Part shown: positions 3,337 through 30,565 of the stretch, piece by piece
How positions within the stretch are numbered: the stretch's first letter is position 1
How the letters are laid out: each line of letters starts with the position of its first letter
Origin: Escherichia phage NicoleGrasset_Bas72
Sequence record: PQ850621.1
Direction: 5' to 3' (one strand)
DNA: 43,746 nt
Made by a program: the position numbers and the translations under genes
The notes under the pieces: generated by a model
What the model saw: the letters and a program-made list of their open reading frames with translations, nothing else
Databases searched by the model: none
What the model was told of the DNA's origin: nothing

Positions 3337-3340
3337 TAGT

Positions 3341-4878: not shown

Positions 4879-4880
4879 TA

Positions 4881-4909
4881 AAAGGCCCCATTATGGGGCC
4901 TTAGTTTTC
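4881..4909. terminator. rho-independent terminator, likely bidirectional
   Basis: AGGCCCCA tta TGGGGCCT then TAGTTTT; A-run on the other side; between convergent genes. Confidence 0.6.
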
Positions 4910-5111
4910 AACGGAATCTTGTGTTTAAATCCTGCTCATGGACAACCCTCAGAACAGTGTCATAATCCCCGTATCTTCCAGGTTCAAATATATCTAATGC
5001 CTTGTAAGCAGACATTGCGTCAGGGAAAACCTGCAGAACCTTTTTAACCCGGCACAAGTCACCGTCGAACTCTTCATCGAACTCTTGAACTACTTCGCAA
5101 ATTGCATACAT
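4908..5111 (-). CDS. hypothetical protein, 67 aa, acidic
   Basis: ATG with AGGAGGTG SD; sits between bidirectional terminator 4881-4909 and minus-strand promoter 5139-5167. Confidence 0.5.
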   Translation of the reverse strand: MYAICEVVQEFDEEFDGDLCRVKKVLQVFPDAMSAYKALDIFEPGRYGDYDTVLRVVHEQDLNTRFR

Positions 5112-5138
5112 TTTTCACCTCCTGTTTAAGTTAACTGA

Positions 5139-5167
5139 ATAGTACCCTATTATATTGGGGTGTGCAA
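5139..5167 (-). promoter_or_regulatory. promoter, TTGCAC-N17-TACTAT family
   Basis: On minus strand: TTGCAC, 17-nt spacer accccaatataataggg, TACTAT; drives 4908-5111. Confidence 0.55.
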
Positions 5168-8540: not shown

Positions 8541-8576
8541 TACAACGGCCCTTCGGGGCCGTAATAAGGAAAGGTC

Positions 8577-11158: not shown

Positions 11159-12327
11159 ATATGGCTACAACTCCTTTTAAGGGCGCGAATACCGCGCAAT
11201 TCTATGTGGCGGAAACTACCCCTGGCGTAACACCGACTAACCCGGTATGGTCGCCGTTGCGTAACACGGGCGGCGTTCCCGCTGTAACCCGCGATGCACT
11301 GACTTCCAACGAACTGGACGGCAGCCGTGAAACTACATCCATCCGAACCGGTAACAAGCAGGTTAGCGGGGAGTATGCCATCGAACTTAGCTCTCGTAGC
11401 CAGGATGATTTCCTTGCGGGAGCGATGACTTCTACGTGGCAAGCTGGGGTAGAGATTACTGGCGCCGAAATTACGGTCGCCCCAGCAGGTAAAACATTCA
11501 CCCGCGCTGCCGGTAGCTTCATTACTGACGGTGTAGAAGTTGGCGACCTTATTGCGTTCACCGACTTAACCGGCGACAACGCAAAACCGTTTATCGTGAC
11601 CGCGGTTTCCGCTCTGGTAGTTACGGGCGCAGGTATTCAGCACACGCTGACAGCAGAGACAGTAACCACTGACGCAAAAACTGGCGACAAGCTGGAAACC
11701 GGTAACGCGTGTAAGACGTTCTCCATCCTGACGTGGTTCAAGGGCCAGTGTGGTAACCCGGACGCGTACATGCTGACCAAAGGTGTGGAAATCTCTGGCT
11801 TTACCGTAGAGCAGGCGGTTAACGCCATGGTCACCGGCAGCTTCCCGTTCATCGGCCTGAGTCAGGAGATTCTTACCGCGCCGCCGTCTGGCTCTGATTT
11901 CTCTCAGGTTACGTTCACCGATGAGCCGTTCTCGTCGGTAGATGTGTCGGTGTTCGATGGCTCCACGCCGTTGCGTTGCGATACTCTCACCATCACCAAC
12001 GACAACGGAGCTTCCGCGCAGTTCGAACTCGGTAACAGTAGCGTGGCGTTCGTCGAACGTGGACGCGCAGCTAACACATTCTCTATCTCTGGCAAGCTGT
12101 ACGACATGGCGATGATTCAGAAGTTTATCAACGAGCAGCAGGTAGAGATTAACTCTATTCTGGCAGGGGTAAACGGGGCTATGTCTTTCAGTTTGAAACG
12201 CGCAGAGCTTACGGCGGTTACACCTGAGATTGGTGGGCCTGAGTCAATCACTCAGTCCATTGAAGGCCAGGCTACCGGCAATCAGTACCAGTCGTCTATC
12301 GTAATTCAACGTATCACCTACGCATAA
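11155..12327 (+). CDS. putative major tail protein
   Basis: 390 aa ORF upstream of chaperone/tape-measure genes; followed by strong terminator at 12329-12356. Confidence 0.45.
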   Translation: MNMATTPFKGANTAQFYVAETTPGVTPTNPVWSPLRNTGGVPAVTRDALTSNELDGSRETTSIRTGNKQVSGEYAIELSSRSQDDFLAGAMTSTWQAGVEITGAEITVAPAGKTFTRAAGSFITDGVEVGDLIAFTDLTGDNAKPFIVTAVSALVVTGAGIQHTLTAETVTTDAKTGDKLETGNACKTFSILTWFKGQCGNPDAYMLTKGVEISGFTVEQAVNAMVTGSFPFIGLSQEILTAPPSGSDFSQVTFTDEPFSSVDVSVFDGSTPLRCDTLTITNDNGASAQFELGNSSVAFVERGRAANTFSISGKLYDMAMIQKFINEQQVEINSILAGVNGAMSFSLKRAELTAVTPEIGGPESITQSIEGQATGNQYQSSIVIQRITYA

Positions 12328-12328
12328 A

Positions 12329-12356
12329 ACTAAGGCCCCTTTCGGGGCCTTTTTCT
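12329..12356. terminator. bidirectional rho-independent terminator
   Basis: AGGCCCC tttc GGGGCCT then TTTTT; convergent genes on both sides. Confidence 0.75.
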
Positions 12357-12586
12357 CACTCATCAATATTACTTCGATACTCCCGTAACTTCTCCAGACT
12401 TTCAATTGCTTCTGCTAAGTCGGTTCCGGTGTCCTTATGCCCGCGAAGACCCATGCACAATAACTTCTTCAATGCGTGCTGTAGTGCGGGGTCACGGATG
12501 TCGAAGGCACGGAGAACATCGTAAACGTCTACGGTCATAGTGCTGCCGTGAGTGTTTGTCATTGTTCGGTTGTATTTTGAAGTCAT
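12356..12586 (-). CDS. hypothetical protein (76 aa)
   Basis: Last gene of minus-strand cassette; start overlaps stop of 12583-13713. Confidence 0.45.
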   Translation of the reverse strand: MTSKYNRTMTNTHGSTMTVDVYDVLRAFDIRDPALQHALKKLLCMGLRGHKDTGTDLAEAIESLEKLREYRSNIDE

Positions 12587-13713
12587 CCCAGCATCTCCGG
12601 TGAAATAGTTAAACGTGCGACCTCGCCATATTCGGCGCTATAAGTAATTACATTTGCACTACGGCCTGACATCCACCCGCCGCGGGAGGCATAGGCGTCT
12701 TTAGCCGCTAAGGTGCGGTGTTGCTCAACAATCATGTTACGGCTTTCTACAATCTTCTGGTGGTGCAGGTGGCCTACGTGGGCGTAGCTATAGACACTCT
12801 CACCGAACGCTTTGCGGAATTTGGCAATCATAACCGGTTCGATAGCATCGAATCGCGCCTTATGCCCGTGGTGAAAGAACAACGTCGTTTTTCCGTGTTG
12901 CACCATCTTGTAAACATCCGGCGACGTATCGACAATCACTCGGCTGTCGTTCGAATATAAAACTGTGAACATTTCAGCCAGCCATACAGAGCCTACAGGG
13001 TCATGGTTCCCCTGTACGATAAGCAAGCGAACATTTTTATGTTTAACCAGTGCCATATCTACAACACGGCGTACCATACGAATCATGTAGCGGACGAGTT
13101 TCTGGTAGCGAGTGTCTGCGTCCAACACGTGACGCGACTCAGGTGTAACGGCATCCAGACTATCGAAGTGCGCGAAATCACCCAGCAGGTTAATAACTCC
13201 TGTTCCTGCATCCGGTGCTTTCTGAAACGCCGCGTCGAACCAACGAGAGAACAGGTCTTCCGCAATCTTTATATCCCAGTCGTCGCCGCTCTCGTCGGCC
13301 CAGGCAAGCATACCGAGATGGAAATCAGATACCGTGTAAAGATTGAGTAGCTTGTCGTCGCGTTTGGCTCGAGTCGCTTTAGCCGGCGCAACTGGCGTAA
13401 TCTCTGACTTCATGCCTTCAATCACGGCTTTCATCAACTCGACCTGACGTTCAGCGTCGGTGTCTGTCTTAACCCATTGCAACTTAGTATTGCCGAACTC
13501 GTCTACCAGAGACGACGTCCCTTTAATCTTGTAGCCGTCTGGGACAAGGTGGCTAACGTCACGCCCGTGGCCTACACCTTTCTTAGCCAGCTTCGCTTTA
13601 CGGATACGAATAACTCGGTCTGAGATGCCGTATTTACGGGCGATGTCTACATTCTTCATCCCGGCGTTCAATTCTTCCTGTAACTGTTCGTCGGTTATTT
13701 TCTTCTGGGCCAT
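12583..13713 (-). CDS. HTH domain fused to calcineurin-like metallophosphoesterase
   Basis: Metallophosphoesterase motifs visible in order: SDFHLG (D-x-H), GDFAHFD (GD), GNHD, HHGH, GHLHH; N-terminal HTH-like segment VDIARKYGISDRVIRIRKAKL. Confidence 0.7.
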   Translation of the reverse strand: MAQKKITDEQLQEELNAGMKNVDIARKYGISDRVIRIRKAKLAKKGVGHGRDVSHLVPDGYKIKGTSSLVDEFGNTKLQWVKTDTDAERQVELMKAVIEGMKSEITPVAPAKATRAKRDDKLLNLYTVSDFHLGMLAWADESGDDWDIKIAEDLFSRWFDAAFQKAPDAGTGVINLLGDFAHFDSLDAVTPESRHVLDADTRYQKLVRYMIRMVRRVVDMALVKHKNVRLLIVQGNHDPVGSVWLAEMFTVLYSNDSRVIVDTSPDVYKMVQHGKTTLFFHHGHKARFDAIEPVMIAKFRKAFGESVYSYAHVGHLHHQKIVESRNMIVEQHRTLAAKDAYASRGGWMSGRSANVITYSAEYGEVARLTISPEMLG

Positions 13714-13778
13714 GCTTACTTCCTCGTGTTTAGGATTTGTCCTATTTAACCACAGTGGATTCCTTTAAATAAAGGCAA

Positions 13779-14105
13779 CTATTTACTTTCTGCGCCTATC
13801 GCCCACCCTGTCATTACCATTTGCAGACGGGTGGCTGTCAGTAGGCTATAGAAAGCATCTCCGTTTTTCTCTACCGAACGTATCACTGTGTAGGTTACGG
13901 CCTGCGGGGGTAGGCCCGATTTACCAACCTCCACGGCGGCCTCACACTCGCGAACTGTAGAGTCCTTGAACGCCTTTACAATAGTAGGGTCGGCTTTATC
14001 AAGCACACCAGAAGTCATAAGAACAGATTCACTAAATACCTGTTCGCACGGGGCTCCAAAAGTAGCAAAAGACATAAACCCCAGAGCTAATACTAATTTA
14101 CGCAT
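13779..14105 (-). CDS. small secreted protein (signal peptide)
   Basis: N-terminus MRKLVLALGFMSFATFGA is a signal-peptide-like n/h/c region; first gene downstream of promoter 14134-14162. Confidence 0.55.
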   Translation of the reverse strand: MRKLVLALGFMSFATFGAPCEQVFSESVLMTSGVLDKADPTIVKAFKDSTVRECEAAVEVGKSGLPPQAVTYTVIRSVEKNGDAFYSLLTATRLQMVMTGWAIGAESK

Positions 14106-14133
14106 AATTATACCCTCAGTAAGTTACTGGTGA

Positions 14134-14162
14134 ATAGTACCCTATTATATTGGGGCGCGCAA
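14134..14162 (-). promoter_or_regulatory. promoter, TTGCGC-N17-TACTAT family
   Basis: On minus strand: TTGCGC, spacer gccccaatataataggg, TACTAT; drives cassette 13779-14105 onward. Confidence 0.55.
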
Positions 14163-14269
14163 GTAGTGTGTTAGAATAAGTTTGCGCCTAGTGTCGCACA
14201 CGAAAAGCGGGTGGTTCCCGCCTGGCGCATTAACCATAACCAGTAACCTCTTAACCAAAGGACTAAAGA

Positions 14270-14686
14270 ATGAAACTTTCTGATTTCTATTTTGCCGACC
14301 GCCACGCCGCCGGTACTAAAATGCCTATCCTTCTGCCCAGTGGTAAAGATTCCGGTGAATGGTTGCAGGTCATCGGCCCCGATTGTGACGCTGGTGTTCG
14401 TGCGGGCCGTGCCTACACAACGGCAATTCGACGCCTTACGGAAGAACTTGCGCCATTAGATAAAGAGTGCGAGGCGCTGAATAACTGGGCGCGCTATAAT
14501 GATGAGAAGGGCTGGCGGGTGATGGACCTGAACAAGCAGCTTGCCGTGGAAATCGTCACCGGTTGGTCATTCGACGAACCATTCAGCAAAGAGGCGCTTG
14601 CTAACCTGTTCGACCAGTACAGTGGGTTGGCAGAGGCCGTAGTTAAGCATCACACCGATAGCCGTGAGAAACTCTCGGAAAAGTAA
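14270..14686 (+). CDS. tail assembly chaperone (G-like)
   Basis: 138 aa ORF immediately upstream of tape measure gene; downstream -1 frame ORF overlaps by 16 nt. Confidence 0.55.
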   Translation: MKLSDFYFADRHAAGTKMPILLPSGKDSGEWLQVIGPDCDAGVRAGRAYTTAIRRLTEELAPLDKECEALNNWARYNDEKGWRVMDLNKQLAVEIVTGWSFDEPFSKEALANLFDQYSGLAEAVVKHHTDSREKLSEK

Positions 14687-15048
14687 AAGCGCTGTATGAA
14701 TTTGCGCAATGGTGCTTTGTCGACCGCCACAAACGTAAGCAATTCGACGACATCGCGGCGGGCCACCAGGCGGCTTTGATTGCAATGGGCGTGATTAAAG
14801 AACCGCAGATGAAAGAAGCGACGGGGCCGGAATGCCCCGTTTCTCTTATCGACGTGTTCGAGAAATACCGTGCCATTAAATTCCTACAGCGCGAAACAGA
14901 TGATACTATCGTTATAATCCCGCGCGATGCGCTCAAATGGCAAGATTTGGTAGCGTTTCGTGATGTCGCCGGTTACGGCATAAGTTTGTTCGAAGCCGAG
15001 GTTATCATGGGCTTAGACGGAATATTTGAGGGCAGAGAAGATGGCTGA
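14668..15048 (+). CDS. -1 frame extension of tail chaperone (GT-like frameshift product), putative
   Basis: Frame -1 relative to 14270-14686 opens at 14668 with no in-frame ATG before 14785; ends overlapping the tape measure ATG; GAAAAG run at 14678-14683 lies in the overlap. Confidence 0.4.
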   Translation, partial: ETLGKVKALYEFAQWCFVDRHKRKQFDDIAAGHQAALIAMGVIKEPQMKEATGPECPVSLIDVFEKYRAIKFLQRETDDTIVIIPRDALKWQDLVAFRDVAGYGISLFEAEVIMGLDGIFEGREDG

Positions 15049-17353
15049 TACGGCTTCCCTAATTGCCAGAGTAAAAACAGAAGGCGCTGATGTAGCCGCT
15101 AAACAGCTTGACGCTATGGCGGCATCCGCAGACCGTGCGGACACATCCGTAAACAAACTAACGCCGGATGTTAATAAAGTAAACTCCGCTACGTCTAAAG
15201 CGGCTTCTGACGGTTTCGCTAAATTCCGTAACGCCGCCGGGCAGGTAGGCTTCCAGGTGCAGGACATGGTCGTCCAGTTGCAGTCCGGCACGTCTGCATT
15301 CGTAGCAATCGGGCAACAAGGCTCTCAGCTTGCGGGTGCTTTCGGCCCTGGTGGCGCGGTGCTTGGGGCCGTAATTGCTCTTGCGTCAGCAATCGGTGGT
15401 GTCCTGTATAAATCGTTAACCGAAGCAGAAGGCAGTTCAAAAGACCTCGAAGCCGCACAGAAACAGCTAAAAGATACTTTCCAGCAAACGGCGTCCGGCT
15501 CTCTCGAACTGACAGACGGCCTTATCCAGCTTACCCAAATCAGCAGAGAAGCGGCGGAGACTCAGCTTGCGCTGGCTAAGGCTAACGCGGACCTTATCGC
15601 ACAGCAAACAGCTAAAGCTGTTCGTGAGGACGCAGAATCATGGGAGACATGGAAGGCATCCACAGCATCAGCTATCAGCCAGTACGATGCATTGGCCTCT
15701 AAAGGTGCGGATGTAGGCGACACGTTAGAAAAACTCGGTGGCACTTACGAGGGTAACATCGTAGGCGTCAACATGCTGGCGCAGAATATCGCAGAGCTTA
15801 GCAGTAAGTTTGGGGTTAACCGTGACCAGGCGCTGGAGATGATAGCGGCGCAGAGTGCGTTTAACAAAGAGCCAACCGCCGAGAATGCCCGTCGCATCGC
15901 CGATGTGTTTACCGACTGGCTCGGTAATACAAAACAGTTGAACCCGGAACTTATCCGCCTGACCGACAATGCCAACAAGAACGCCACGGCACTGGAGAAC
16001 GCGGAGAAGTCCGCAAACGCGGCGGCGGAGGCCCAAAAGAATCTTGGTCGTAACGTCAACTCAACAACGCAGAGATTCCAGGAACAGAACGAAGCTATCG
16101 TCAAAAACCAGCAAATCGCTATCTTAAGTGACCGCGAGCGTATCCGTGCGCAAGCTGAACTGGATAAGCAGGCGTTCGCTAAACGTGAAGCTGTCACCAA
16201 AGAACAGATCGCCGCGTATAATGCTGCGCGTGACACGGAAGCACAACAAGACATCGCTCGCATCGACGCTACCGAAAAAGCGAAGGCCGACCGCGAGGCC
16301 AAATCGAACGAGAAACGGCTGGCGGCACAAGCCAAACGCGAAGAAACGGCGGCTGAACGACAGAAAAAAGCGGCGGAAGATTTCCTGGCTACTGTCGACC
16401 GCACAACCGGAGATGAGATTTCGCGCATTACCGCTGCGGAAGAACAGAAACTGGCGAAACTGGAGGAGTTCAACCGCGCCGGAACGATAAGCCAGCAGCA
16501 GTATGAAAACGCCAAAACTCAAATTATGCTCACAGCCGAGCAGGCCAGACAGGAAGAACTGGATAAGAAAAGAAAAGAGCAGCAGGAAAAGCAGCAGAAA
16601 GGCGAGGACTTCATGGCACAGATTATGGGTCAGAACGCTACTGAGCTTGAGCTTCTCGACATCCAGGAACAGCAGAAACTGGAGGTAGCGGATAAGTACC
16701 GTGAGCAGGGGCTTATTAGTGAGAAGCAGTACCAGGCGGCGCTTAACGCCATCAATGAGCAGTATGCTACGAAGCGTGCCGACGCAACGGCAACCGCCTT
16801 CGGTAACATGGCTTCAAACATCGGTTCGGCTTTGGGCGAGGCTTCTGGCGCGTATAAGGCATTCGCTATCGTACAGGCCACTATCGCCACGTACACCGCG
16901 GCTATCGAGGCGTACAAGTCCACAGCGGCTATCCCTGTAGTTGGTCCGTTCCTGGCTCCTGTAGCTGCCGCCGCTGCCGTTGGGGCGGGTATGGCGCAGA
17001 TTTCCGCTATCAGGTCCGCACGTGAACAGGGCGGACAGTTATCAGCCGGGCAGGCTTCCACCATCGCTGAACGTGGTAAACCAGAAGTTATCATGCCCGC
17101 TGGTGCGTCACGTGTACGCACCGCACAGCAGATGAAAGAAATTATGGGGCAAAACGGGTCTTCTTCCGGCCCATCTAATGTTACCATTGTAAATAATACA
17201 TCGAGTCAGATTGGCAACGTATCCACCGAGCAGGATGATGAAGGCCGTCTGCGTATCATCATAGAAGAGCAAGTTGCTGCATCTTTGCAGAACAGCAACA
17301 GTAAGATTAGCAAGGCCCGCAAGGCCACAAGAAACGCGCCGGGGTTTAAATAA
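15041..17353 (+). CDS. tail tape measure protein
   Basis: About 770 aa, highly A/E/K/Q-rich helical protein with low-complexity repeats; position after chaperone pair. Confidence 0.75.
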   Translation: MADTASLIARVKTEGADVAAKQLDAMAASADRADTSVNKLTPDVNKVNSATSKAASDGFAKFRNAAGQVGFQVQDMVVQLQSGTSAFVAIGQQGSQLAGAFGPGGAVLGAVIALASAIGGVLYKSLTEAEGSSKDLEAAQKQLKDTFQQTASGSLELTDGLIQLTQISREAAETQLALAKANADLIAQQTAKAVREDAESWETWKASTASAISQYDALASKGADVGDTLEKLGGTYEGNIVGVNMLAQNIAELSSKFGVNRDQALEMIAAQSAFNKEPTAENARRIADVFTDWLGNTKQLNPELIRLTDNANKNATALENAEKSANAAAEAQKNLGRNVNSTTQRFQEQNEAIVKNQQIAILSDRERIRAQAELDKQAFAKREAVTKEQIAAYNAARDTEAQQDIARIDATEKAKADREAKSNEKRLAAQAKREETAAERQKKAAEDFLATVDRTTGDEISRITAAEEQKLAKLEEFNRAGTISQQQYENAKTQIMLTAEQARQEELDKKRKEQQEKQQKGEDFMAQIMGQNATELELLDIQEQQKLEVADKYREQGLISEKQYQAALNAINEQYATKRADATATAFGNMASNIGSALGEASGAYKAFAIVQATIATYTAAIEAYKSTAAIPVVGPFLAPVAAAAAVGAGMAQISAIRSAREQGGQLSAGQASTIAERGKPEVIMPAGASRVRTAQQMKEIMGQNGSSSGPSNVTIVNNTSSQIGNVSTEQDDEGRLRIIIEEQVAASLQNSNSKISKARKATRNAPGFK

Positions 17354-18753
17354 TGAGCGACTTATATTTCCCACGTAGCCTTAAGCCGGTGGTATCGAAA
17401 GGCTACTCAATGACCAGACGCAACAACGTCTGGAGTGTAGATTTAGCCGGTGGCGGAGTGCGTCAAGGCCGTGACACGTATTATGATGTGTTCCCAATAA
17501 GCGTAACCCTGATTACATCTGCACTAGGGCGACAGGCGTTCCTGTCGTTCCTTGAGAAAGTGGACGGCGGCGCGTCAAGTTTCTGGATGGCGCATGACTT
17601 CGGCATGGGTATTGAAGATTATCAGGTAACCATCACGTCCACCATCGCGGAGTCCACCGAAGACGGCATTAACTGGACGATTACTTTCACGGCAACCGCC
17701 GAGAAATCCCCGTTCCAGGACCAAGAGAACCAGTGCCTGATTAACAATCTTCCAGATTTGTACGGTTGTTACGGGGATTGTCTGGGTAGTTTCCTGAAAA
17801 TATACGCGAACTACGAGACTACGTTCCCGCGCATCTGGAGCAATGAAGGGCCTGCCGGGCATCCACCGATTAACCTTCTGGCGTCGACTCTTGATAGCCG
17901 CATTGTTTACGACGGGCCACAGGTTTACTACATCAACCGAAATGGCAATCTTGTGCAGTCCGCCACTAATGAATGGCCTCTTACGTTTATCGATGGAGTT
18001 GCTGTTGGGCGTGTACCACCGGAAAAGGCGGCTACCAATGTGGTAGAACATTCTAACAACTTACTATCTACATCATTTTCACGTACCAGAACAACAACCA
18101 CGGCGAGTTCTTTGGCGTTATTCCAAGAAACTTATGCTGCTAAATTAACCGCAACGTCGGTATCAGGTAACCATTATATAAACCAGATGGTGGCTCCCGC
18201 ACCGGGAACAAGGTATTCTCTTAGCGCTATCATGAAAGCAGATGAGTACCAGTCGGCAGCGGTAGTCATCGGCAACCGAGCCGCTTTAGATAATTTCCAG
18301 TATGCCTATGTTGACTTAGCCTCCGGCTATTTGATATCAGGCGACACCTCAAGGTCGTTCGTAAGCAATCTTGGTGGTGGGTGGTATCACGTTTCAATGT
18401 CAGCGGACACTAACGACTCCGGCGGATTGATTTATTCGCAGATAAACATGTTGTCGCCGTCTAACTCCCTCACCTTCACAGGGGATGATGTCAGTGGGTT
18501 CAATGTGGCTCTAATTCAATCGGAGGCATCGCCATTTGCCACATCGCCAATAGTAACCGATGCGTCACCGGTAACCAGACACACGGCATCGGCAAAAGTA
18601 GCAATGAACGGCGCAACAAGCATCGACATTACCTATTCAGACGGCTCCGTGATAAACGTTCAGGCTGTTGACGGTTACGCCTCCATACCCCAAGCGGATT
18701 CGGCGTGGGGTAGTAAGTACATCACTCGTATTGATTTTAATGTGGACGGTTAA
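17353..18753 (+). CDS. minor tail protein
   Basis: 466 aa ORF; ATG overlaps tape measure stop (TAATG). Confidence 0.55.
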   Translation: MSDLYFPRSLKPVVSKGYSMTRRNNVWSVDLAGGGVRQGRDTYYDVFPISVTLITSALGRQAFLSFLEKVDGGASSFWMAHDFGMGIEDYQVTITSTIAESTEDGINWTITFTATAEKSPFQDQENQCLINNLPDLYGCYGDCLGSFLKIYANYETTFPRIWSNEGPAGHPPINLLASTLDSRIVYDGPQVYYINRNGNLVQSATNEWPLTFIDGVAVGRVPPEKAATNVVEHSNNLLSTSFSRTRTTTTASSLALFQETYAAKLTATSVSGNHYINQMVAPAPGTRYSLSAIMKADEYQSAAVVIGNRAALDNFQYAYVDLASGYLISGDTSRSFVSNLGGGWYHVSMSADTNDSGGLIYSQINMLSPSNSLTFTGDDVSGFNVALIQSEASPFATSPIVTDASPVTRHTASAKVAMNGATSIDITYSDGSVINVQAVDGYASIPQADSAWGSKYITRIDFNVDG

Positions 18754-18756
18754 TTT

Positions 18757-19272
18757 ATGAGCCAGGAATCTGTAGAAGCCGCCTATCGCCGTAAGCTGGC
18801 CTCAAATCCCGACGGCGAGATGGACTACATCACGTTGCAAATCAGCCACCCGTTGTTGTCAAAGACGTACTATCTTGTTCGTGGGCTACAGGAACTTACG
18901 GCGACACTGGAAACCGGCGAAACTATCACATTCGAACCCACCCCGATGGAGGCGTCGGGGGCCGCTAACAACAGTGATATGGACCAGACGACCACGTTTA
19001 CTTTACCGGATATCCTCAATCAACTTGATGATGAGATGGATAAAATCCCAATGGGCAATACGGAGTTGCCGAAGTTCGTATTTCGCCGTTACGTCAGCAC
19101 CGACCTGTCTTATCCGGCGGACGGCCCTGTCGTGTACGAGTTACAGGCCATCAACCAGGAGAAGGGCGAGTTCTCTGCGGATGTCGGTACACCTATGCTG
19201 AACCAACGAAGCACTGGTATACTGATGACACCTAAAGAGATACCGTTATTACGCGGCCTGTTGACTACATGA
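18757..19272 (+). CDS. minor tail protein
   Basis: 171 aa ORF in tail-tip gene block. Confidence 0.5.
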   Translation: MSQESVEAAYRRKLASNPDGEMDYITLQISHPLLSKTYYLVRGLQELTATLETGETITFEPTPMEASGAANNSDMDQTTTFTLPDILNQLDDEMDKIPMGNTELPKFVFRRYVSTDLSYPADGPVVYELQAINQEKGEFSADVGTPMLNQRSTGILMTPKEIPLLRGLLTT

Positions 19273-19634
19273 ATATTAACGACTACACGGGAATACCTTA
19301 CGACTTTCGCAAACGTAATTGCTGGCATCACGTGCGCATTGTCCGCGCGGATGCCGGGTTAGAAACCCCAGCGTTCGACGTTGCAAGCCCAACGGCGATT
19401 AACGAAGCGTTCGACGAAGGACATCGCAACACGAAGGGACTTACAAAAATTGATAAGCCTGAAAACTTCTGTGCGGTGCTTATGGGGTATCGCCGCGGCG
19501 GTCGTATCGTGTGGCACGCAGGAGTTTACTTCGACGGGATGGTGAGCCATTGCGAGCTTGCTTCCCGTCAGGTACGGCTTGACAGGCTGGCGGATCTCAG
19601 AGACACGTACACGGAGATTGAATTTTGGCGATAA
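19269..19634 (+). CDS. tail assembly protein with NlpC/P60-like Cys/His motif (lambda K-like)
   Basis: 121 aa; Cys then two His residues spaced as in NlpC/P60 peptidases (NCWHH...H...H); position before large tail-tip gene. Confidence 0.5.
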   Translation: MNINDYTGIPYDFRKRNCWHHVRIVRADAGLETPAFDVASPTAINEAFDEGHRNTKGLTKIDKPENFCAVLMGYRRGGRIVWHAGVYFDGMVSHCELASRQVRLDRLADLRDTYTEIEFWR

Positions 19635-19692
19635 TCCTGCACTACACGCGAAACGCTGATGGCGCTTTCAACCGTACAAAACACGTCGGGAT

Positions 19693-22192
19693 GCCGATGG
19701 AGTTTGTCGTTAACCGTATCCCGGACGGCGTTCCGGTACGCGTCTATCTTGGCGAGATTGGTGATGATACTGATGTTACAGACGACTTCGACGCGCTCAA
19801 AGACGAGGACGCCGTGTACCACATTATTGAGGGCGCTGGCGGCGGCATTGGCGACGCCATCGGGAGTGTATTCAGTTTCATCCTTAAGCCAATCGCCAAA
19901 TTGTTCGGGCTAAACACAGCGGCTAACGCTAATTATTCCGCTACCAACAATCAGGCTACGTCGCCTAACAACAGTCTCACCGACCGCTCAAACAAACCGC
20001 GACCTTATGAGCGTTCTTATGACATCTGCGGGACAGTGCAGACTATCCCCAATGACCTGATGCAGACGTATAAGGTGTTCAATGCCGCAGGTGCACTTAT
20101 TGAGTACGCGTATTATGACGCCGGGCGCGGGCATCTGCATATCGAAGCAGACGGTGTAACCGAGGCAGATACCAGAATCAGCGAGATAACAGGTTCGTCG
20201 GTTACGGTGTATGCGCCATACACATCACCCAATAACACCAGTACGCCGCAACTCCACATCGGGGACCCGATAGACCAGAAGTTGTACGTTACATTTAAAA
20301 ATGCCGATGTCGATGGGGCAGTTCTCCCCGCCCCCAACGATATCGCTATAGACGTGCAGGACTACACCGTCCAGCGGCAGGGAACAACCGGCGTTGTAGT
20401 AGGCGATGACGCTGGTTTCGATGAGTTTTTGGCTGTCGGAGACCTGGCATATTTCGATAACGTATACGCGGACACAACCCCAGGGTCTTTGGGTAATGAG
20501 GTTAACCTGGACGGCCGGTACACGGTTCTTTCGGTTAGTGAAACTACCCTTATTGTGGACGTCAGCACAAATCAATCAGTATGGAACCAGCTAGGGACGT
20601 CTGTGTGGTTTATAGGTGAAGAGGGTAACCATCTTATAGGCCCGGCGGACACTTACGCGGCTTCCCTCTCTGAATGGGCGTACATCACCCGCGGTACTGT
20701 CGACCGTGTTGTAGCCAATGTTGCCGCCAGCAACGGCATGTATAAATACAACGGTGACTATAACCGCGCTTCTGTGACAGTAGAACTGCAATACCAGATG
20801 GTTGATGAGTTGAAACGGCCCGTAGGTGATATATTCACCGTACAAGGAACTTTAACAGGCAGGAACACGGATTACACTGGGATAACTCTTTACGGAAGTT
20901 TACCAACTGCTTCCCGATTCCGCGCCCGTATGCGTCGTGTTTCTGACACCGATAAAGATTTTGAGGGTACTGTTAGTGACGAGGTTACTTTCACTAATCT
21001 GTACGGGCAGTCACCGGATACAACCCCGCACTACGGCAACCGCACTACCGTACACTGCGCTCGTAAACAAACGCCACGTGCCGCGGAGGTGTCCGAACCG
21101 GAACTACGCATGATTGCTACCGAGATGTGCTACAAATACTTAGGTAACGGCGTATTCGATACGGTAATGACCCCTAATACGCAGGCGGTGCAATCGCTAA
21201 TTCGACTGGCTCGCGACCCGGCGGTAGGTAATCTGGAACTGACAACGGCAAACATGGACAAGTTACTCGCCGTGCAGGAAGAAATTGAGTCATATTTCGG
21301 AAGTGAATTAGCGGGGCAGTTCTGCTACACGTTCGACGACTACGGCACCACAATGCAGGACATTGTTCAGACTATAGCTGAAGCCGTGTTCTGTACTGCG
21401 TACCGTAAAGGCGCGGATATTATGCTGCGATTCGACCGTCCGGTTGCTGGGCCTGAAATGGTGTTCACCCACCGCAGTAAGACGACCGGTACGGAGAAAT
21501 GGACGCGCACGTTCAACGATTCGACAACCTACGATAGCCTGTCGTTCTCGTACATTGACCCAGATACAAACGTACAGGAGACAATTTACATCCCGGAAGA
21601 ACTCGGTGCAAACACTGAGGAATACGAATCAAAGGGTGTGCGTAACTATCAGCAGGCGTACTGGCTGGCGTGGCGTCGCTACCAGCGCAACGCGTTAAGT
21701 AAAGTTGTCGTAGAGTTCGAAGCTACAGAAGAAGGTGCGCTCGCTACCCCCGGCGGGGTAATCAGCGTGGTTAAAGGCTCTCGCATTGCGCCGCAAGATG
21801 GTTATGTTGTTGCCGTTAATGGGCTTACGCTGACGCTGTCGCAGCCGGTTATGTTCACCCCCGGCGACGACCACTCCATCATCCTCAAGAAGCGCGATGG
21901 CTCGGTGCAGAGTATCTCCGTTATCAAAGGAAGCCACGACCGCGAAGTGATTATGCTCTCCGCACCTGAGGAGGCAATTTACACAGGGAATAGCGCGCTA
22001 AAAACTGAGTTTTCATTCGGCAACGAAGCAAGGCATAATGCTCAGAAGATAGTTGTTTCTTCAATCGACCCGGGCGACGACCGCACGGTAAAGATTACTG
22101 GATACAACTATGACGACGGATTCTATAAATACGACGGCGTCGCGCCATACGGCAGCGGTTTCTCCGACGGATTCAGCAATGGTTTTAATTAA
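19693..22192 (+). CDS. tail tip / host specificity protein (I/J-like fusion); alternative upstream start at 19625
   Basis: About 830 aa ORF; N-terminal segment with GAGGGIGDAIGSVFSFILKPIAKLF resembles tail assembly protein I-type proteins; large downstream domain. Confidence 0.55.
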
Positions 22193-22204
22193 AGAGGACT
22201 CTAT

Positions 22205-24136
22205 ATGTCAAGCGGATGCGGTGACGTTTTAAGCCTGGCGGATTTACAGACCGCCAAGAAGCACCAGATTTTTGAAGCCGAGGTTATCACAGGTAAATCC
22301 GGCGGAGTATCTACGGGTGCTGATATCGATTACGCGACAAATCAGGTTACAGGGCAGACTCAGAAGACGCTCCCGGCCGTGTTGCGTGACGCCGGGTTCA
22401 GACCTGCGCCATTCACATTCGAAACAGGTGGGACTTTGGGCGTTAACGACGCTGACCTGGCGGTGTTGTGGCCAGGGCCATCAGGCGACGGCAACTATTA
22501 TGCATGGAAAGGTGCCCTGCCAAAAACCATCCCGGCATCTTCAACCCCGGCGTCTACGGGCGGAGTAGGCCAGACCGCATGGGTTGCCGTTAGTGAAGCT
22601 GCATTGCGCCGTGATTTGGCCCTAAGCACTGGCGCAGGGCTAGTTGGTACGTCTTCGGGTCGCACAGTGCAAGGCGAGGTTGACCATTTCAAAATAGGGT
22701 ATATGACACCCGATGATTTCGGCGCGGTGGGTGATGGTGCCACCGACGACACCACGCCTTTGCAACAGGCTATTGACTATTGTTCAAGCAACGGTATCGC
22801 GTTAAGAATCCCCGCAAAATCTTATGTTTGGAATGGCGGTATTATAACTTCACCCATAACAATAATCGGTGACAGACGTCCAGATTACAATTTTAGCTCC
22901 AATTCTATGTCTAACGGGTCTGTCATAATTGGCAATTTAAGATTTTCCGCAAGCCAGGTGATTATTAAGTCACTTGGTGTGCGTAGGCCTACAGGCTCCC
23001 CCGGAGATTGTCTGGTGTTATCGACCGATAACTATGCTGGTGGGTCTTGTATTGTTCAAGATGTAGTTGCCGCGGGCCTTTCCGGTTCGGACACGTACCA
23101 CAGCGTTCTTGTTGAAGGCTACGATTCCGCGCATGTATCTCAAATAACTGGCGGTTATAATCTTTTTGGCCTCGCGATTAAGTCAAGAAACGTTGTTGCC
23201 AGAGGCGTAATAACCGTAAGCTGTGATACTGGCGTTATCATTAAATCTGATAGTGAGTTCAGCACGGCAAAAAATGTGGTGCTGGACGGGCACATTAATG
23301 TCGGTAATGGTGTTTCTAGTCAAGGTGTTTGGATTTACAGCACAACCGCACAACTTGAGCGTATTACCTGCGCAAACTTACAAAGCATCGATTCCGCTAT
23401 ACATATGCGGATTAAGTCCGAAAACGTAGCTAATGACGTGCAAATTGTTGGGGCAAATTATTCAGGATCTACTTATGCGGATGTGCTCGTCGAAGGCACT
23501 TCGGCTGGCACATTGTACAATGTTAGTTTAGATAGTATAACAGCAGTAGATAGCCAGAAATTTATGGCTGCAGGTTTCTGTGAACAACTGATGGTAACAG
23601 GATTCTATGGGTCCCTGAAACCTGGCGCTCCCGCCGATGCTGCGTTTGAGGTTAGCGCCGCCGTAGGGCTTTTTAGCGGGTCAAATATCCAACTAGTCCG
23701 TCAATACGGCAGTGACCTAATGACAATGAATCTCGGTAACAGTTATCTTAATAATAGATTATCATCTGTTAAGGCGAAAGTAATAGGAGACGGCAAACCT
23801 AGACCGGGGTATAAAGAACAGAATCTTAGCGGCGCTGCGGCTTCAATGATTGTCGGCGACAGTTTGGGTCCCTCTGGGGTTGTGTCTGTCACCGCGTTAT
23901 CCACCGGCAGTTCATTCAGCAGTATTTCTATTAATGACGACTATGGTCAGCCGGTTAAGCCAGGTTTTCTTCTAATAATCCGAAACGCATCCACTATCCC
24001 GTTCGTTATGAACCATAATCCAGGGTCTGGTGGAATCGCAAATAACAGGGCGGTGGGTAAGACCATTGCGGGCGGAGACACTATAATGTACGTTTTTGAC
24101 GGGGCGAATTGGCGTCAGACTCCATCAATAACATAA
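22205..24136 (+). CDS. tailspike with right-handed beta-helix (pectate-lyase-like) domain; candidate depolymerase
   Basis: 643 aa; motif FGAVGDGATDDTTPLQQAIDYCSSNG typical of pectate lyase superfamily beta-helix; Gly/Thr-rich N-terminal anchor region; last structural gene before terminator. Confidence 0.65.
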   Translation: MSSGCGDVLSLADLQTAKKHQIFEAEVITGKSGGVSTGADIDYATNQVTGQTQKTLPAVLRDAGFRPAPFTFETGGTLGVNDADLAVLWPGPSGDGNYYAWKGALPKTIPASSTPASTGGVGQTAWVAVSEAALRRDLALSTGAGLVGTSSGRTVQGEVDHFKIGYMTPDDFGAVGDGATDDTTPLQQAIDYCSSNGIALRIPAKSYVWNGGIITSPITIIGDRRPDYNFSSNSMSNGSVIIGNLRFSASQVIIKSLGVRRPTGSPGDCLVLSTDNYAGGSCIVQDVVAAGLSGSDTYHSVLVEGYDSAHVSQITGGYNLFGLAIKSRNVVARGVITVSCDTGVIIKSDSEFSTAKNVVLDGHINVGNGVSSQGVWIYSTTAQLERITCANLQSIDSAIHMRIKSENVANDVQIVGANYSGSTYADVLVEGTSAGTLYNVSLDSITAVDSQKFMAAGFCEQLMVTGFYGSLKPGAPADAAFEVSAAVGLFSGSNIQLVRQYGSDLMTMNLGNSYLNNRLSSVKAKVIGDGKPRPGYKEQNLSGAAASMIVGDSLGPSGVVSVTALSTGSSFSSISINDDYGQPVKPGFLLIIRNASTIPFVMNHNPGSGGIANNRAVGKTIAGGDTIMYVFDGANWRQTPSIT

Positions 24137-24137
24137 A

Positions 24138-24166
24138 ACTAAGGCCCCGTTTGGGGCCTTTTCTCT
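24138..24166. terminator. bidirectional rho-independent terminator at structural/replication module junction
   Basis: AGGCCCC gttt GGGGCCT then TTTTCT; near-identical to terminator at 12329. Confidence 0.75.
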
Positions 24167-24302
24167 ACTCTTCCGATAACTTCTCCAGCACAAACGCCAG
24201 TTGCGCATTAGCGGCATCTCTCTGCTGACGTAGTCGTAGAACCTCTTCTTCGAGTTCCTTGATACGTTTTTGCAATGCTGGAATCGGGGCTATGATGTTC
24301 AT
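24165..24302 (-). CDS. small coiled-coil peptide (45 aa), putative
   Basis: ATGA overlap with upstream gene stop; sequence MNIIAPIPALQKRIKELEEEVLRLRQQRDAANAQLAFVLEKLSEE; not in ORF track (short). Confidence 0.35.
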   Translation of the reverse strand: MNIIAPIPALQKRIKELEEEVLRLRQQRDAANAQLAFVLEKLSEE

Positions 24303-24484
24303 TTCTCACCTTCGCTTTTCTTGAAGCTGCGCTTTATGTCCGGCAGCGTGTAACATCGTGACTTTTCATATTTACCGTTCGAGCTTACTAAAACAAAGCT
24401 GTTGCCGTCTTTTGATATGTACTCGATGGTGAAAGTATTGAATGAGCGTATGCTGTATATTTCATCGCCAACATTAAGTTTCAT
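24299..24484 (-). CDS. hypothetical protein (61 aa)
   Basis: Overlaps helicase stop; co-oriented with replication operon. Confidence 0.45.
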   Translation of the reverse strand: MKLNVGDEIYSIRSFNTFTIEYISKDGNSFVLVSSNGKYEKSRCYTLPDIKRSFKKSEGEK

Positions 24485-25905
24485 TTCTTACCTCGTCTCT
24501 TCATGTAATTAAGCAACTCTTCCTGTACCGATTTTTTCTCGTCCGTACGCGCGGCAACAACCTCGTCCAGCGTGTCTTTAGCGACGATATGATAGAGGAA
24601 CACCGGGCGCTCGTGTCCCGCCTGTTTCTGGCGGACCGGGCCTATGCGCTCAACAACCTGTAAATAGTGCTCAAGGTTCCACCCTTGCGAAATAAACGCC
24701 AGATGATGTCCGCCGTCCTGTAAATTCAAACCATGACCAGCTGACGCAGGATGCACGCATAAGATCTCAATTTCACCACGGTTCCACGCTTCCATCTGCT
24801 TATTACCCTTAACTCCTTTGGCAAACGCCTGTGCCTGCGGGAATCGCTTAAGGATGCGCTCCAGTTCGTGCTTGAACTGATAAGCCACCAGTAACGGCGC
24901 ACCTTGTAGCTCCTCAACAATTGACTCGAGCGCATCCAGTTTCGTGTCGTGCACTTTCTCCCAGTCTTTGGTTGCTTCTCCGTCGTCACCCGTCACATAC
25001 ACAGCACCGGAAGCAATCTGCAAACACTTAGACGTCTTCGCTGCCGCGTTAGCCGCTTCAACTTCCCCGCTCTCCAGTTCCGCGAATAACTTTTCCTCCA
25101 TATCGATGTACGCCTGACGCGCTTTCTTCGGCAGGTCGATTTCAACAGGTACGATAACCGGCGCTTCGCATCCGAACCACTCAGCGGCGTCAATCGTGAG
25201 ACTGATGTCCTTCATCTTCTGGTGGATTTCAGTATCCGCACCCGGGCGGGCGTGGTATTCGCGCGCCATAGCAGATTTGCCTTTCTGCACCGAGTTAAAC
25301 CAGCGGTCGGTGAATGCCGTGTACGAAGAACCGAGGCGCTCGCCCGCGTCGATAAACCAGTTCTGTCCCCACAAGTCCTTGAGGCCGTTAGGCGATGGTG
25401 TACCTGTCAGGTTGATAAAACGCTTAACCTTTCCGAACGCCACTCTACTAAGCGCCTTCGCCCGCTTGCTGCCGCCTGAACGGCTGCGGAATGACTTCAG
25501 TTTCGTGCTTTCATCGGCAACGATAACGGTAAAAGGCCAGTCGTCTTTGCCGTAGTAGTCAATCAACCACTCTATTACCTCATAGTTCGTGCACACCACG
25601 TTAGCGTCCGACTCCAGCGCCGCGATGCGGCGCTTCTCTGAACCGGTCGCGTCTACGACACGCAGACATGGGAAATTCCACTTAGTTTGTTCCGCCGGCC
25701 ATGTGCCTGATGCAACGCGCAACGGGGCGAGGATTAACACGCGGTCCTCTTCTGTAAGCTGCCCGTTGCGGAACAGTCGGTTTAATGTCCACAGTACGCT
25801 GCCAGTCTTCCCGGCGCCCATGCTCGCCCAAATATTACAGCGATGGTGCCGCAACATGAACGAAGTCATTAGCTTCTGGTATTCGCGCCTTTGAAACTTA
25901 CTCAT
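24481..25905 (-). CDS. SNF2/DEAD-like helicase
   Basis: Walker A MGAGKTGS, DExx box VIVADESTKLK, helicase C-terminal region. Confidence 0.7.
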   Translation of the reverse strand: MSKFQRREYQKLMTSFMLRHHRCNIWASMGAGKTGSVLWTLNRLFRNGQLTEEDRVLILAPLRVASGTWPAEQTKWNFPCLRVVDATGSEKRRIAALESDANVVCTNYEVIEWLIDYYGKDDWPFTVIVADESTKLKSFRSRSGGSKRAKALSRVAFGKVKRFINLTGTPSPNGLKDLWGQNWFIDAGERLGSSYTAFTDRWFNSVQKGKSAMAREYHARPGADTEIHQKMKDISLTIDAAEWFGCEAPVIVPVEIDLPKKARQAYIDMEEKLFAELESGEVEAANAAAKTSKCLQIASGAVYVTGDDGEATKDWEKVHDTKLDALESIVEELQGAPLLVAYQFKHELERILKRFPQAQAFAKGVKGNKQMEAWNRGEIEILCVHPASAGHGLNLQDGGHHLAFISQGWNLEHYLQVVERIGPVRQKQAGHERPVFLYHIVAKDTLDEVVAARTDEKKSVQEELLNYMKRRGKK

Positions 25906-26910: not shown

Positions 26911-27198
26911 TTAACTATAATAGCCCGCTATTAGGTCGTCAACCTGTTTAAACGAACCAACGACAAAAACATTTGCACCACGTTTACGCATCCGCTCGTG
27001 CTCTCGTAACTGGTGCGGGTCCGGCTTCGTGTTTTCGTCTTTCTTAACCTCGACGAACCAGATGATGCCACCAGGGAGAATTACCAGCAGGTCGGGGGCG
27101 CCGGAGCGCCCCTCATAAGACAGCTTACGAACGAGGCCACCAATGGCCTCGAATCGCTCTTTTGCGTATTTCTGCACGCGCCCCTCAGGCGTACTCAT
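26911..27198 (-). CDS. VRR-NUC domain nuclease (PD-(D/E)xK)
   Basis: 95 aa; GAPDLLVI...VEVKK pattern matches the D...E-x-K core of VRR-NUC; GAGGGG SD. Confidence 0.6.
   Translation of the reverse strand: MSTPEGRVQKYAKERFEAIGGLVRKLSYEGRSGAPDLLVILPGGIIWFVEVKKDENTKPDPHQLREHERMRKRGANVFVVGSFKQVDDLIAGYYS
26914..26942 (-). promoter_or_regulatory. sigma70-like promoter TTGACG-N17-TATAGT
   Basis: On minus strand; within the 3' end of the VRR-NUC gene; upstream of 26689-26880 and the methyltransferase. Confidence 0.5.
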
Positions 27199-27279: not shown

Positions 27280-27411
27280 TCATTCCAGCACCCACAGATA
27301 AATTGCGATGAACATGCCCAATATGGCAACCATCATGCCGTATTGACCCTCGTGACAGTAGACACCGGCAGCAAATCCCGCCAGTACCGCGATAATCAGT
27401 TTACTTGGCAT
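27280..27411 (-). CDS. small hydrophobic membrane peptide (43 aa), putative
   Basis: AAGGAG SD 9 nt upstream; MPSKLIIAVLAGFAAGVYCHEGQYGMMVAILGMFIAIYLWVLE; not in ORF track. Confidence 0.35.
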   Translation of the reverse strand: MPSKLIIAVLAGFAAGVYCHEGQYGMMVAILGMFIAIYLWVLE

Positions 27412-28096
27412 CTCTACATTCTCCTTCAGGCCACCTATTAGGAAAAGACGGTATATGTGAAACTTCTCTCGCCGCTTTTATTCTTTTAATGGCGGGACCT
27501 ATCTCCGTAACCATTTCAATGAATGTAAACCGGTGTCCTCTGGTAAGATTACATGTCTGACAACAAGAAACGCAGTTAGATACTATGTGCCCGCTTGTAT
27601 TATCTATGCGGTCTACCCCGACTTTTGTAGTGCTTCCGCAATAATGGCATGGCTGTGATATTAGTTTAATAACGCTTTCCAGTGTTAAATCGCAGATAAG
27701 CCCTTTTCCTGAATCTGCTCTTTTGTATCCTAACAAAAGCGCGTACGCCCGCGTCCTTTGGTCCTTATTCACCAGTTCCCTGCGTTGCTTGTTGAGACAC
27801 TCCCGGCAATCTTTCCTGATATGAGAGCCATTACTTTTATTTCCTTTCCTGAAGTTTTCCTCTGTTAAAGGTTTTACCTCCCCACACTTTCTGCATTTAA
27901 CAGGCTTCCCAGTGAAAACATACCAAGGGCTTTCTCGTCTGGATTTACCTTGTAATTTAAGTTTTTCGTCATACTTTTCCTTCCTGTTAGCATTTACACA
28001 CTCTTTACACCAGCGTTGCAGCCCGAGGCGCGTTGACTTTGAAAAATACTCTGTAGTCGCCGGTTTATCTTCGCCGCATCTTGAACACTTTTTCAT
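27401..28096 (-). CDS. HNH endonuclease with N-terminal zinc-binding Cys pairs
   Basis: CxxC pairs (CSRCG, CKEC, CRKCG) and HNH core HYCGSTTKVGVDRIDNTSGHIVSNCVSCCQTCN; ATG at 28096 with GGAG SD. Confidence 0.7.
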   Translation of the reverse strand: MKKCSRCGEDKPATTEYFSKSTRLGLQRWCKECVNANRKEKYDEKLKLQGKSRRESPWYVFTGKPVKCRKCGEVKPLTEENFRKGNKSNGSHIRKDCRECLNKQRRELVNKDQRTRAYALLLGYKRADSGKGLICDLTLESVIKLISQPCHYCGSTTKVGVDRIDNTSGHIVSNCVSCCQTCNLTRGHRFTFIEMVTEIGPAIKRIKAAREVSHIPSFPNRWPEGECRDAK

Positions 28097-30354: not shown

Positions 30355-30506
30355 TTCTTTTTCCTTAAATCCAGTGCCTTCGTTTCGCTGAGTCTTATTT
30401 TCATACAATCACGGCAAATCCACACATGCCTGTACCCGGCGCGGTACTCATCCGCGTACCACGGAAGCGGTTTCATATATCGGTATACGTGCTTACAGAA
30501 AAACAT
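30351..30506 (-). CDS. small zinc-ribbon-like protein (51 aa), putative
   Basis: Cys pairs (MFFCKHV...ICRDC); stop overlaps polymerase ATG (ATGA); not in ORF track. Confidence 0.35.
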   Translation of the reverse strand: MFFCKHVYRYMKPLPWYADEYRAGYRHVWICRDCMKIRLSETKALDLRKKK

Positions 30507-30519
30507 GATTTTCGACCCT

Positions 30520-30548
30520 TAGTAAAAAGGCCCAATGAAGGGCCTTAG
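30520..30548 (-). terminator. terminator (minus strand) after DUF2815-like gene
   Basis: On minus strand: AAGGCCC ttcattg GGGCCTT then TTTTTAC. Confidence 0.5.
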
Positions 30549-30565
30549 TTAAATTGATTCAGATA

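Follow-up and report, generated by a model that had tools for sequence, protein, structure and literature searches.

Morons, a concept that goes back to Hendrix and Juhala, are promoter-gene-terminator units inserted between phage genes; in their classical form they are known from temperate phages, with expression from the prophage. From T4-like phages, promoter-early stem-loop (PeSL) cassettes are known (Arbiol et al. 2010, PMC2839356; Comeau et al. 2014, PMC4122927). Furthermore, conserved motifs flanking the domains of receptor-binding proteins have been proposed as recombination hotspots (Pas et al. 2023, PMC10408124); the downstream terminator motif of that study was found in Gamaleya-, Kutter- and Justusliebigviruses and in single Kayfuna- and Nouzillyvirus proteins, not in Kagunavirus (PMC10408124). 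Here we describe four hairpins, T1 to T4, in Escherichia phage NicoleGrasset_Bas72 (PQ850621.1). The whole stretch of 43,746 nucleotides (nt), called the window in the following, is the complete genome of a siphovirus of the genus Kagunavirus, subfamily Guernseyvirinae. As predicted from their sequence, these hairpins probably constitute one lineage-specific family of bidirectional Rho-independent terminators, and each of them abuts a variable gene slot. They are a known kind of element, not a new kind, resembling the boundaries of PeSL cassettes and morons. In the Jerseyvirus SETP3 (NC_009232) Rho-independent terminators are annotated at the sites orthologous to T2 and T3, with the same GGCCCC/GGGGCC stem; like T2 and T3 they have a GC-rich hairpin between an A-run and a T-run, at convergent stop codons. 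Whereas that record annotates two sites singly, we add the multi-copy family, its two orientations, the flipping of its loops and its coincidence with slot edges.

Gene order and names were taken from the record of Escherichia phage LotteLoewe_Bas71, which is 96.3% identical to the window between positions 11000 and 25000, and from Pfam scans. The number of phage records sharing parts of the window is 499. Loci from IMG/VR were collected via the neighbouring helicase and exonuclease genes, that is, they were chosen around T2 and T3; individual loci are given below by L numbers.

The window contains four copies of AAGGCCC(C)-loop-(G)GGGCCTTAGTT, where none would be expected by chance. Written as a search pattern, AAGGCCCN{3,7}GGGCCTTAGTT, the motif has exactly four matches (4882, 12328, 24137 and 30527) versus 0.00 expected. 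T2 and T3 both start with CATAAAACTAAGGCCCC (12323-12339 and 24132-24148), which in either case includes, at an identical register (12325-12327; 24134-24136), the TAA stop codon of the upstream plus-strand gene, and both go on with GGGGCCTTTT behind a loop that reads TTTC in T2 and GTTT in T3. A previous examination of the letters alone, the sequence-only reading, had pointed out this 17-nt left flank with its stop codon, the common right arm and T-tract and the difference mainly in the loop, and all of this was found at the coordinates concerned. It had also listed related hairpins near 4881-4909 and 30520-30548. These two, T1 and T4, do match the four-site motif but are inverted with regard to T2 and T3: T1 and T4 carry it on the plus strand, T2 and T3 on the minus strand, so the family exists in both orientations. 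In the repeat search the T2/T3 pair (D8) appeared as 42 ungapped nt with 83% identity and the pair 4879/30523 (D17) as 28 nt with 79% identity. An exact repeated 17-mer was present in 8 of 200 Markov shuffles. The gapped local alignment of T2 and T3 covers about 53 nt with a score of 58 versus 17.7 +/- 2.3 for shuffled sequences (maximum 29). Across relatives only TAAAACTAAGGCCCC (15 nt) is kept at T3, and the preceding CA varies with the type of tailspike; therefore, the CA match between T2 and T3 is a coincidence of this genome.

That independent terminators became alike by functional convergence only, since strong terminators consist of a GC stem and a T-run, is very unlikely and largely refuted by these data. 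The shared core of A-run, GC stem and T-run is indeed what terminators need, and a few unrelated viral contigs have the same 20-nt motif (L142, L143, L157, L158, L177 and L199). But such convergence would not account for the identical flanks AACTAA and TTAGTT with the stop codon in the same register, nor for a motif with a chance expectation of 0 that has its main occurrence in one subfamily and does not belong to the host. Native Skateviruses have another stem at the same position, and the remaining predicted terminators of the window have different, unrelated stems; the similarity of T1-T4 is thus not generic.

The hairpin folds on both strands in all copies, with free energies from -12.9 to -22.1 kcal/mol; a fold of equal stability was obtained for no more than 5 of 200 shuffles. 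On the plus and minus strand, respectively, the values are -17.0 and -17.1 kcal/mol for T1, -15.4 and -22.1 for T2, -15.5 and -18.0 for T3 and -12.9 and -13.7 for T4. The stems have about 8 bp (7-9, with 7 in T4) and the form AAGGCCCC/GGGGCCTT; they are flanked by an A-rich run and, at the other end, by a T-rich one. Hence, a stable GC-rich RNA hairpin is found in T1-T4, and clean 3' U-tracts follow it on the plus strand in T2 (TTTTTCTC) and T3 (TTTTCTCT) and on the minus strand in T1 (TTTTATC) and T4 (TTTTTAC). On the opposite side of the stems the run reads AGTTTT (AGTTAAA in T4). The distance between the stems and the flanking stop codons is 2-16 nt, T1, T2 and T3 lie between convergent genes, and these three were among the three top-ranked matches of two terminator scans. 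From these features, together with the annotation of the orthologous SETP3 sites, we infer a predicted termination activity, in keeping with the sequence-only reading, in which T2 and T3 had been taken for terminators at strand-switch points.

Some observations speak against this interpretation. On the CCTTAGTTTT side an AG interrupts the U-tract behind the stem, also in T1, T2 and T3 where the genes converge, and termination toward this side may be weak. The simple terminator scan was no richer in the window than in shuffles (24 vs 22.6; 26 vs 22.2), so the scan alone proves little. Moreover, the stems never vary, which leaves no covariation in support of an RNA structure versus a conserved DNA palindrome. 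A literature search for transcript maps of Guernseyvirinae gave nothing useful.

Instead of being primarily a terminator, the palindrome could be a recognition site in DNA or RNA for a factor of the phage or the host, for example a regulator, a nuclease or a processing enzyme of the RNase III type. The lack of compensatory stem changes across two genera would fit to this. Yet it appears highly improbable, as both the location of the hairpins and their T-runs are in line with termination, the loops, normally the determinants of recognition, vary and flip freely, and T4 as well as some relatives tolerate altered stems; in addition, no candidate binding protein was identified, and there is no Rfam match (neither the Rfam scan of the whole window at gathering thresholds nor the tRNA scan had a match, and the hairpin is in no Rfam family).

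In whole-locus counts, the AGGCCCC..GGGGCCT stem was present in 48 of 57 loci of the T3 set and in 40 of 44 loci of the T2 set, and, according to the locus listings, most of the stem-bearing loci have it at the site of T3 or T2. The genes flanking T2 and T3 are only about 68-90% identical in relatives; the stem is nearly invariant across Kagunavirus and Jerseyvirus. When 2.9 million viral contigs were scanned for AACTAAGGCCCCNNNNGGGGCCTT, 92 stretches were found, about 80 of them in Guernseyvirinae contigs of 41-45 kb with 2-3 per genome; the places hit are the sites of T1, T2 and T3 plus a slot that follows the portal gene. In SETP3, more copies of the hairpin follow the portal gene and stand on either side of the ant gene. 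An origin as a terminator or repeat of the host E. coli was rejected, with only two partial matches in 5,426 E. coli genomes. In view of this number and of copies only at gene ends, a palindrome of the kind of repetitive extragenic palindromes or bacterial interspersed mosaic elements (REP/BIME), or of miniature inverted-repeat transposable elements (MITE), was likewise dismissed; in the product annotations of Bas71, a close relative, no transposase was noted.

An extra hairpin after the portal gene was seen in SETP3 (L002, 3296-4030), L191 and L227, where it forms the boundary of an amidase cassette that runs leftward and has a promoter of its own. The window has a different hairpin, AGCCCCGAAAGGGGCT, at this position (3315-3330).

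While the stems are constant, the 4-nt loops occur as reverse-complement pairs among relatives. For the orthologues of T2 and T3 from loci L007-L141 and L001-L006, the T2 loops were GAAA (20) and TTTC (11), AAAC (2) and GTTT (1), GGAA (1) and TTCC (1), and the T3 loops were GTTT (17) and AAAC (7), TTTC (2) and GAAA (1). Even very close relatives with identical flanks differ by a loop flip alone, for instance Bas74 and Bas76 at T3. Template switching at perfect hairpins leaves such a footprint (PMC8794818), and, judged by this pattern, the loop flips are its footprint. Template switching could also keep the arms perfectly complementary, a link that we infer. The flips are frequent, and they illustrate this process by a clean example from nature.

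The coincidence with variable slots is seen from the positions at which homology to relatives ends. About 45 Kagunavirus relatives have other receptor-binding domains; their homology to the window ends near 22398 and is back at 24128-24141, that is, at the tailspike stop codon and the left edge of T3. The receptor-binding part of the tailspike (from ~22398-22684 to 24136) is therefore an exchangeable cassette with T3 as its 3' edge. In five loci the break at T3 is directly after GGGGCCTT, and in L015 a conserved left flank is followed by a different stem beyond GG. The phages Bas77-80, Skatevirus-like and of another genus, share the receptor-binding domain plus T3 with the window (22577-24166) at ~97% identity; in Bas77 (PQ850598, L232) the corresponding region is 3001-4590 and the receptor-binding domain is of the O16 type. 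This homology stops right after GGGGCCTTTT, at the T-run of T3 (~24162-24166). Native Skateviruses have a different terminator at the T3 position, AAACCCCGCTTCGGCGGGGTTAGTTTTATC, and Bas81 combines a Kagunavirus-type T3 with another receptor-binding domain. On these sequence comparisons, the sharing of the O16-type receptor-binding domain and T3 with Bas77-80 is a recent cross-genus transfer.

At T2, homology coming from the tail tube gene reaches 12351-12362 and resumes at 12583. In relatives, polynucleotide kinase/phosphatase-like genes, HNH endonucleases, ant, and a gene of 57 amino acids (aa) or small open reading frames (ORFs) are located in or beside this slot. Both the ant cassettes (SETP3/L106 and, from Kagunavirus, L081) and the HNH cassettes (L080/L095) sit between two copies of the hairpin. 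L129 has the background of L080/L095 without the HNH gene, and here a single chimeric hairpin has the outer flanks of both copies. A recent Kagunavirus-Jerseyvirus transfer of the ant cassette was considered and rejected, its identity of 45-89% per 100 nt being no higher than that of the flanks. The free-standing HNH genes in or beside the slot are at 6587-7079 in L080/L095 and at 6275-6610 in L092/L097/L129. The hairpin 5' of the HNH gene of L080 has lost its T-run (GGGGCCTTATCGC), and this loss would allow read-through into the endonuclease gene.

The T1 slot comprises 4908-5136; its far edge is the start of a promoter repeat, and homology resumes at 5136. The T4 slot is 30361-30504, with breakpoints at 30361 and 30504. 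Breakpoints cluster at T2, T3 and T4, and a further cluster, at 14125-14149, is near the promoter repeat D10b. Because the breakpoint histogram rests on loci picked around T2 and T3, it is not an unbiased genome-wide test. Breakpoints cluster just as strongly at gene boundaries of the ordinary kind (for instance 12575-12599, 24475-24499 and 27400-27424), which has to be added to the points on the negative side. The coincidence with breakpoints is thus not unique to the hairpins, and we do not claim a specific enrichment. At the positions named for T2 and T3, the sites do coincide with boundaries of module exchange in relatives, and to this extent the sequence-only reading, which had considered module exchange, is supported.

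Do the copies also recombine with each other? Seven cargo genes were followed through about 230 related loci by projection-based mapping, and none was ever found at another slot. A first classification of cargo and slots, based on neighbours, had been uninformative; the projection-based version was clear. Each cargo gene is always at its own slot, and therefore the observed exchanges are allelic. This bears on the stronger form of the sequence-only reading, in which the direct repeats T2 and T3 would recombine with each other and the enclosed 11.8-kb segment would be excised or exchanged in one piece. They are direct repeats of ~42 nt with 83% identity, and GAAA/TTTC and AAAC/GTTT loops occur at both sites, which could reflect occasional conversion. 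However, the segment includes essential tail genes (chaperones, tape measure, tip proteins and the tailspike), and its deletion would be lethal; no relative has a block of which both edges are T2 and T3, and none of the seven cargo genes was relocated among slots. We therefore regard recombination between T2 and T3 as extremely improbable. The description of the two sites as bracketing the tail module was also inaccurate, because T2 follows the tail tube gene and the segment opens with a leftward accessory cassette (12356-14105), the remainder of the tail operon coming only behind it.

The slots have a second kind of edge. A promoter repeat, found as D10a and D10b with 94% identity over 32 nt, is located 0.2-1.8 kb from the hairpins, with the cargo genes in between. 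These promoters are predicted from consensus only. D10a would probably drive the leftward 67-aa gene that ends at T1, and D10b the leftward cassette (14105 to 12356) with its end at T2. Near 37.6 and 38.8 kb, in the early region, promoters of this type are found again.

A wider family of sigma-70-like promoters was noted at 5136-5167, 14131-14162, 26913-26942, 31245-31274, 33928-33957, 33977-34001, 37585-37614 and 38765-38778. Their common feature is the palindrome AATAG-N4-CTATT in or beside the spacer, which looks like a candidate operator for a phage regulator. Two subtypes can be distinguished, TTGACA..TGAATAGT..CTATTATAGTT and TTGCACAC..AATAGG.TACTATTCA. Several copies fall at mosaic breakpoints (bins 31250 and 14125).

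As terminators, which is the most probable interpretation, T1-T4 would form a hairpin and U-tract in the RNA from either strand. T1, T2 and T3 would insulate the rightward late structural operons from converging leftward units, which would be two small accessory cassettes with early-type promoters (5136-5167 and 14131-14162) and the replication operon, and T4 would attenuate the leftward operon after the gene of the single-stranded DNA (ssDNA)-binding protein. The copies would be alike by shared ancestry, having been duplicated along with promoter-gene-terminator cassettes, and their stem would be kept constant by selection and probably by template switching at the palindrome, which also would flip the loops. 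Non-essential cargo is placed at operon ends, and for this reason the hairpins would become fixed edges of allelic slots, including the 3' edge of the receptor-binding cassette of the tailspike.

A more active role is conceivable, and we mention it tentatively: besides being terminators, the hairpins, together with the conserved early promoters, might be recombination sites of PeSL-like cassettes. Equally doubtful is the mechanism that would go with it, a short-homology exchange within the element of ~24-40 nt by the Gp2.5-like annealing protein and the exonuclease, by which adjoining cargo, and tailspike domains even across genera, would be inserted, deleted and swapped. Independent events have their junctions in or at the hairpin; ant (SETP3/L106, L081) and HNH (L080, L095) lie between two copies, with the chimeric single hairpin in L129; the left flank is kept and the stem is different beyond GG in L015; the ~45 different tailspike cassettes end at TAAAACTAAGGCCCC; and the homology to Bas77-80, with their shared domain and T3, ends after GGGGCCTTTT, the native Skatevirus terminator being a different one. 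Furthermore, other slot edges match the repeated promoter, and there are precedents in the PeSLs and in the terminator motif 3' of receptor-binding proteins that was proposed as a hotspot in other genera. But in contrast to PeSL-mediated shuffling, cargo never appeared at another slot, and gene boundaries free of hairpins are equally frequent breakpoints. The ant cassette may go back to an old indel and not to a transfer, since its conservation does not exceed that of the flanks, and a breakpoint at the end of the replaced gene is expected anyway if crossovers occur anywhere in the conserved flanks. In its most far-reaching form, this interpretation would have Guernseyvirinae carry portable 'bookends', an early promoter with AATAG-N4-CTATT and a palindromic two-way terminator, as the actual crossover sites for the exchange of cargo and tailspike domains, including that between Kagunavirus and Skatevirus, with ~25-40 nt of homology sufficing for the annealing protein and exonuclease of the phage itself, and with the palindromes being kept perfect and the loops flipped by template switching during replication. 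This we consider possible but rather unlikely; if true, it would be the siphovirus counterpart of the PeSL system of T4-type phages.

The interpretation of T1-T4 as terminators at fixed slot edges allows a direct comparison with the described systems. As in PeSL cassettes, repeated conserved promoter and terminator motifs flank non-essential cargo, and indels and replacements between close relatives have their endpoints in these motifs. PeSLs, however, are compact composites of promoter and stem-loop that are present in many copies in hyperplastic regions and for which minicircles have been demonstrated. Here, promoter and terminator are not combined in one short unit but stand at opposite ends of a slot, in about four copies each, the cargo is fixed in its slot, and ectopic exchange between copies was not found for the seven cargo genes in ~230 loci. 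Thus, T1-T4 are here compared to boundaries of the PeSL type in the way they would work, and are not counted as members of the PeSL family. With the system of Pas et al. they share an exchangeable receptor-binding domain bracketed by the anchor domain's end upstream, a motif that Kagunavirus has, and a terminator-like motif downstream; different is that the T3-type element also occurs at three sites of the genome that have nothing to do with the tailspike. The leftward units at T1 and T2 resemble morons in having their own predicted promoter and terminator and in being embedded in the late region. They would be autonomous units, and they are present or absent among relatives that are otherwise collinear, as the T1 unit is absent from K1H and SETP3 and the ant and HNH units occur in some relatives only. 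But their host phages are siphoviruses of the virulent type, and their flanking signals recur throughout the family instead of belonging to a particular cassette.

Kagunaviruses are small, engineerable phages in which one tailspike sets the host range. The conserved 15-nt stop-plus-terminator at the end of its cassette, together with three other slots with fixed edges, offers ready junctions for tailspike swaps and payloads. T1-T4 are also a testable case of regulatory signals that coincide with mosaic boundaries and possibly help to create them.

The coordinates of the hairpins, of the genes next to them and of the promoter repeats are compiled in Table 1.

Table 1. Hairpins T1-T4, adjoining genes and promoter repeats in the window. 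For hairpins, the strand is that of the motif in the common orientation.
Feature	Position	Strand	Hairpin or promoter as read in the window	Common orientation	Remarks
T1	4879-4909	+	AAAAGGCCCC-ATTAT-GGGGCCTTAGTTTT	GATAAAAGGCCCCATTATGGGGCCTTAGTTTTC	inverted relative to T2 and T3
T2	12323-12364	-	CATAAAACTAAGGCCCC-TTTC-GGGGCCTTTTTCTC	GAGAAAAAGGCCCCGAAAGGGGCCTTAGTTTTATG	stem 12332-12351
T3	24132-24173	-	CATAAAACTAAGGCCCC-GTTT-GGGGCCTTTTCTCTAC	GAGAAAAGGCCCCAAACGGGGCCTTAGTTTTATG	stem 24141-24160
T4	30520-30550	+	AAAAAGGCCC-AATGAA-GGGCCTTAGTT	GTAAAAAGGCCCAATGAAGGGCCTTAGTTAAA	7-bp stem
67-aa gene, T1-slot cargo	4908-5111	-			no Pfam match
Tail tube protein gene	11161-12327	+			Pfam Phage_tube_2, 131.7 bits; Bas71 annotation; stop inside the T2 repeat
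76-aa gene, T2-slot cargo	12356-12586	-			last gene of the leftward cassette
Tailspike gene	22205-24136	+			Pfam Tail_spike_N, pectate-lyase-like and depolymerase C-terminal domains
45-aa coiled-coil-like gene	24165-24302	-			last of the leftward replication operon; stop 4 nt from the T3 stem
51-aa ORF, variable slot beside T4	30351-30506	-
ssDNA-binding/annealing protein gene (Enc34/Gp2.5-like)	30566-31192	-			Pfam PF10991; Bas71 annotation; upstream of T4
Promoter repeat D10a	5136-5167	-	TTGCAC-17 nt-TACTAT (read on the minus strand)		palindrome AATAG-N4-CTATT
Promoter repeat D10b	14131-14162	-			same predicted promoter type as D10a

T1 is located between a Hoc-like decoration gene (4417-4878, plus strand) and the 67-aa gene on the minus strand; K1H, SETP3 and several IMG/VR contigs lack this 67-aa gene or have something else in its place. 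T2 separates the stop codon of the tail tube gene from that of the minus-strand 76-aa gene (12356-12358); the leftward cassette that ends here also holds a DNA repair exonuclease of the metallophosphoesterase type. In the same manner, T3 is placed between the stop codons of the tailspike gene and of the minus-strand 45-aa gene (24165-24167), whereas T4 is internal to the leftward replication operon, with the gene of the ssDNA-binding protein upstream of it. A homology between the small minus-strand genes beside T2 and T3 was considered but is unconvincing, their resemblance being restricted to a short C-terminal LEKL...E* and about 12 nt of DNA.

In two minus-strand genes an exact 22-nt repeat, TCGTCGTCTTCCAGGTCGTCGA (93% identity over 29 nt), was noticed at 30606-30627 and 35480-35501. 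It encodes an acidic stretch of the DDLEDDE type, near the C-terminus of the ssDNA-binding protein and within the helicase-primase, respectively, and such stretches recall the acidic tails of T7 replication proteins.

Another conserved hairpin, GGCCCTTCGGGGCC at 8547-8560, is without a T-run and is found in nearly all Kagunavirus relatives. It lies between head-decoration genes, just 5' of a ribosome-binding site (…GTAATAAGGAAAGG), and its role may be in RNA processing or stabilisation and not in termination. Finally, two exact 19-nt repeats (31462-31480/34257-34275 and 38788-38806/39219-39237) are located at gene junctions with ribosome-binding sites of the GAGGAGG type, and probably are conserved regions of translation initiation or coupling.

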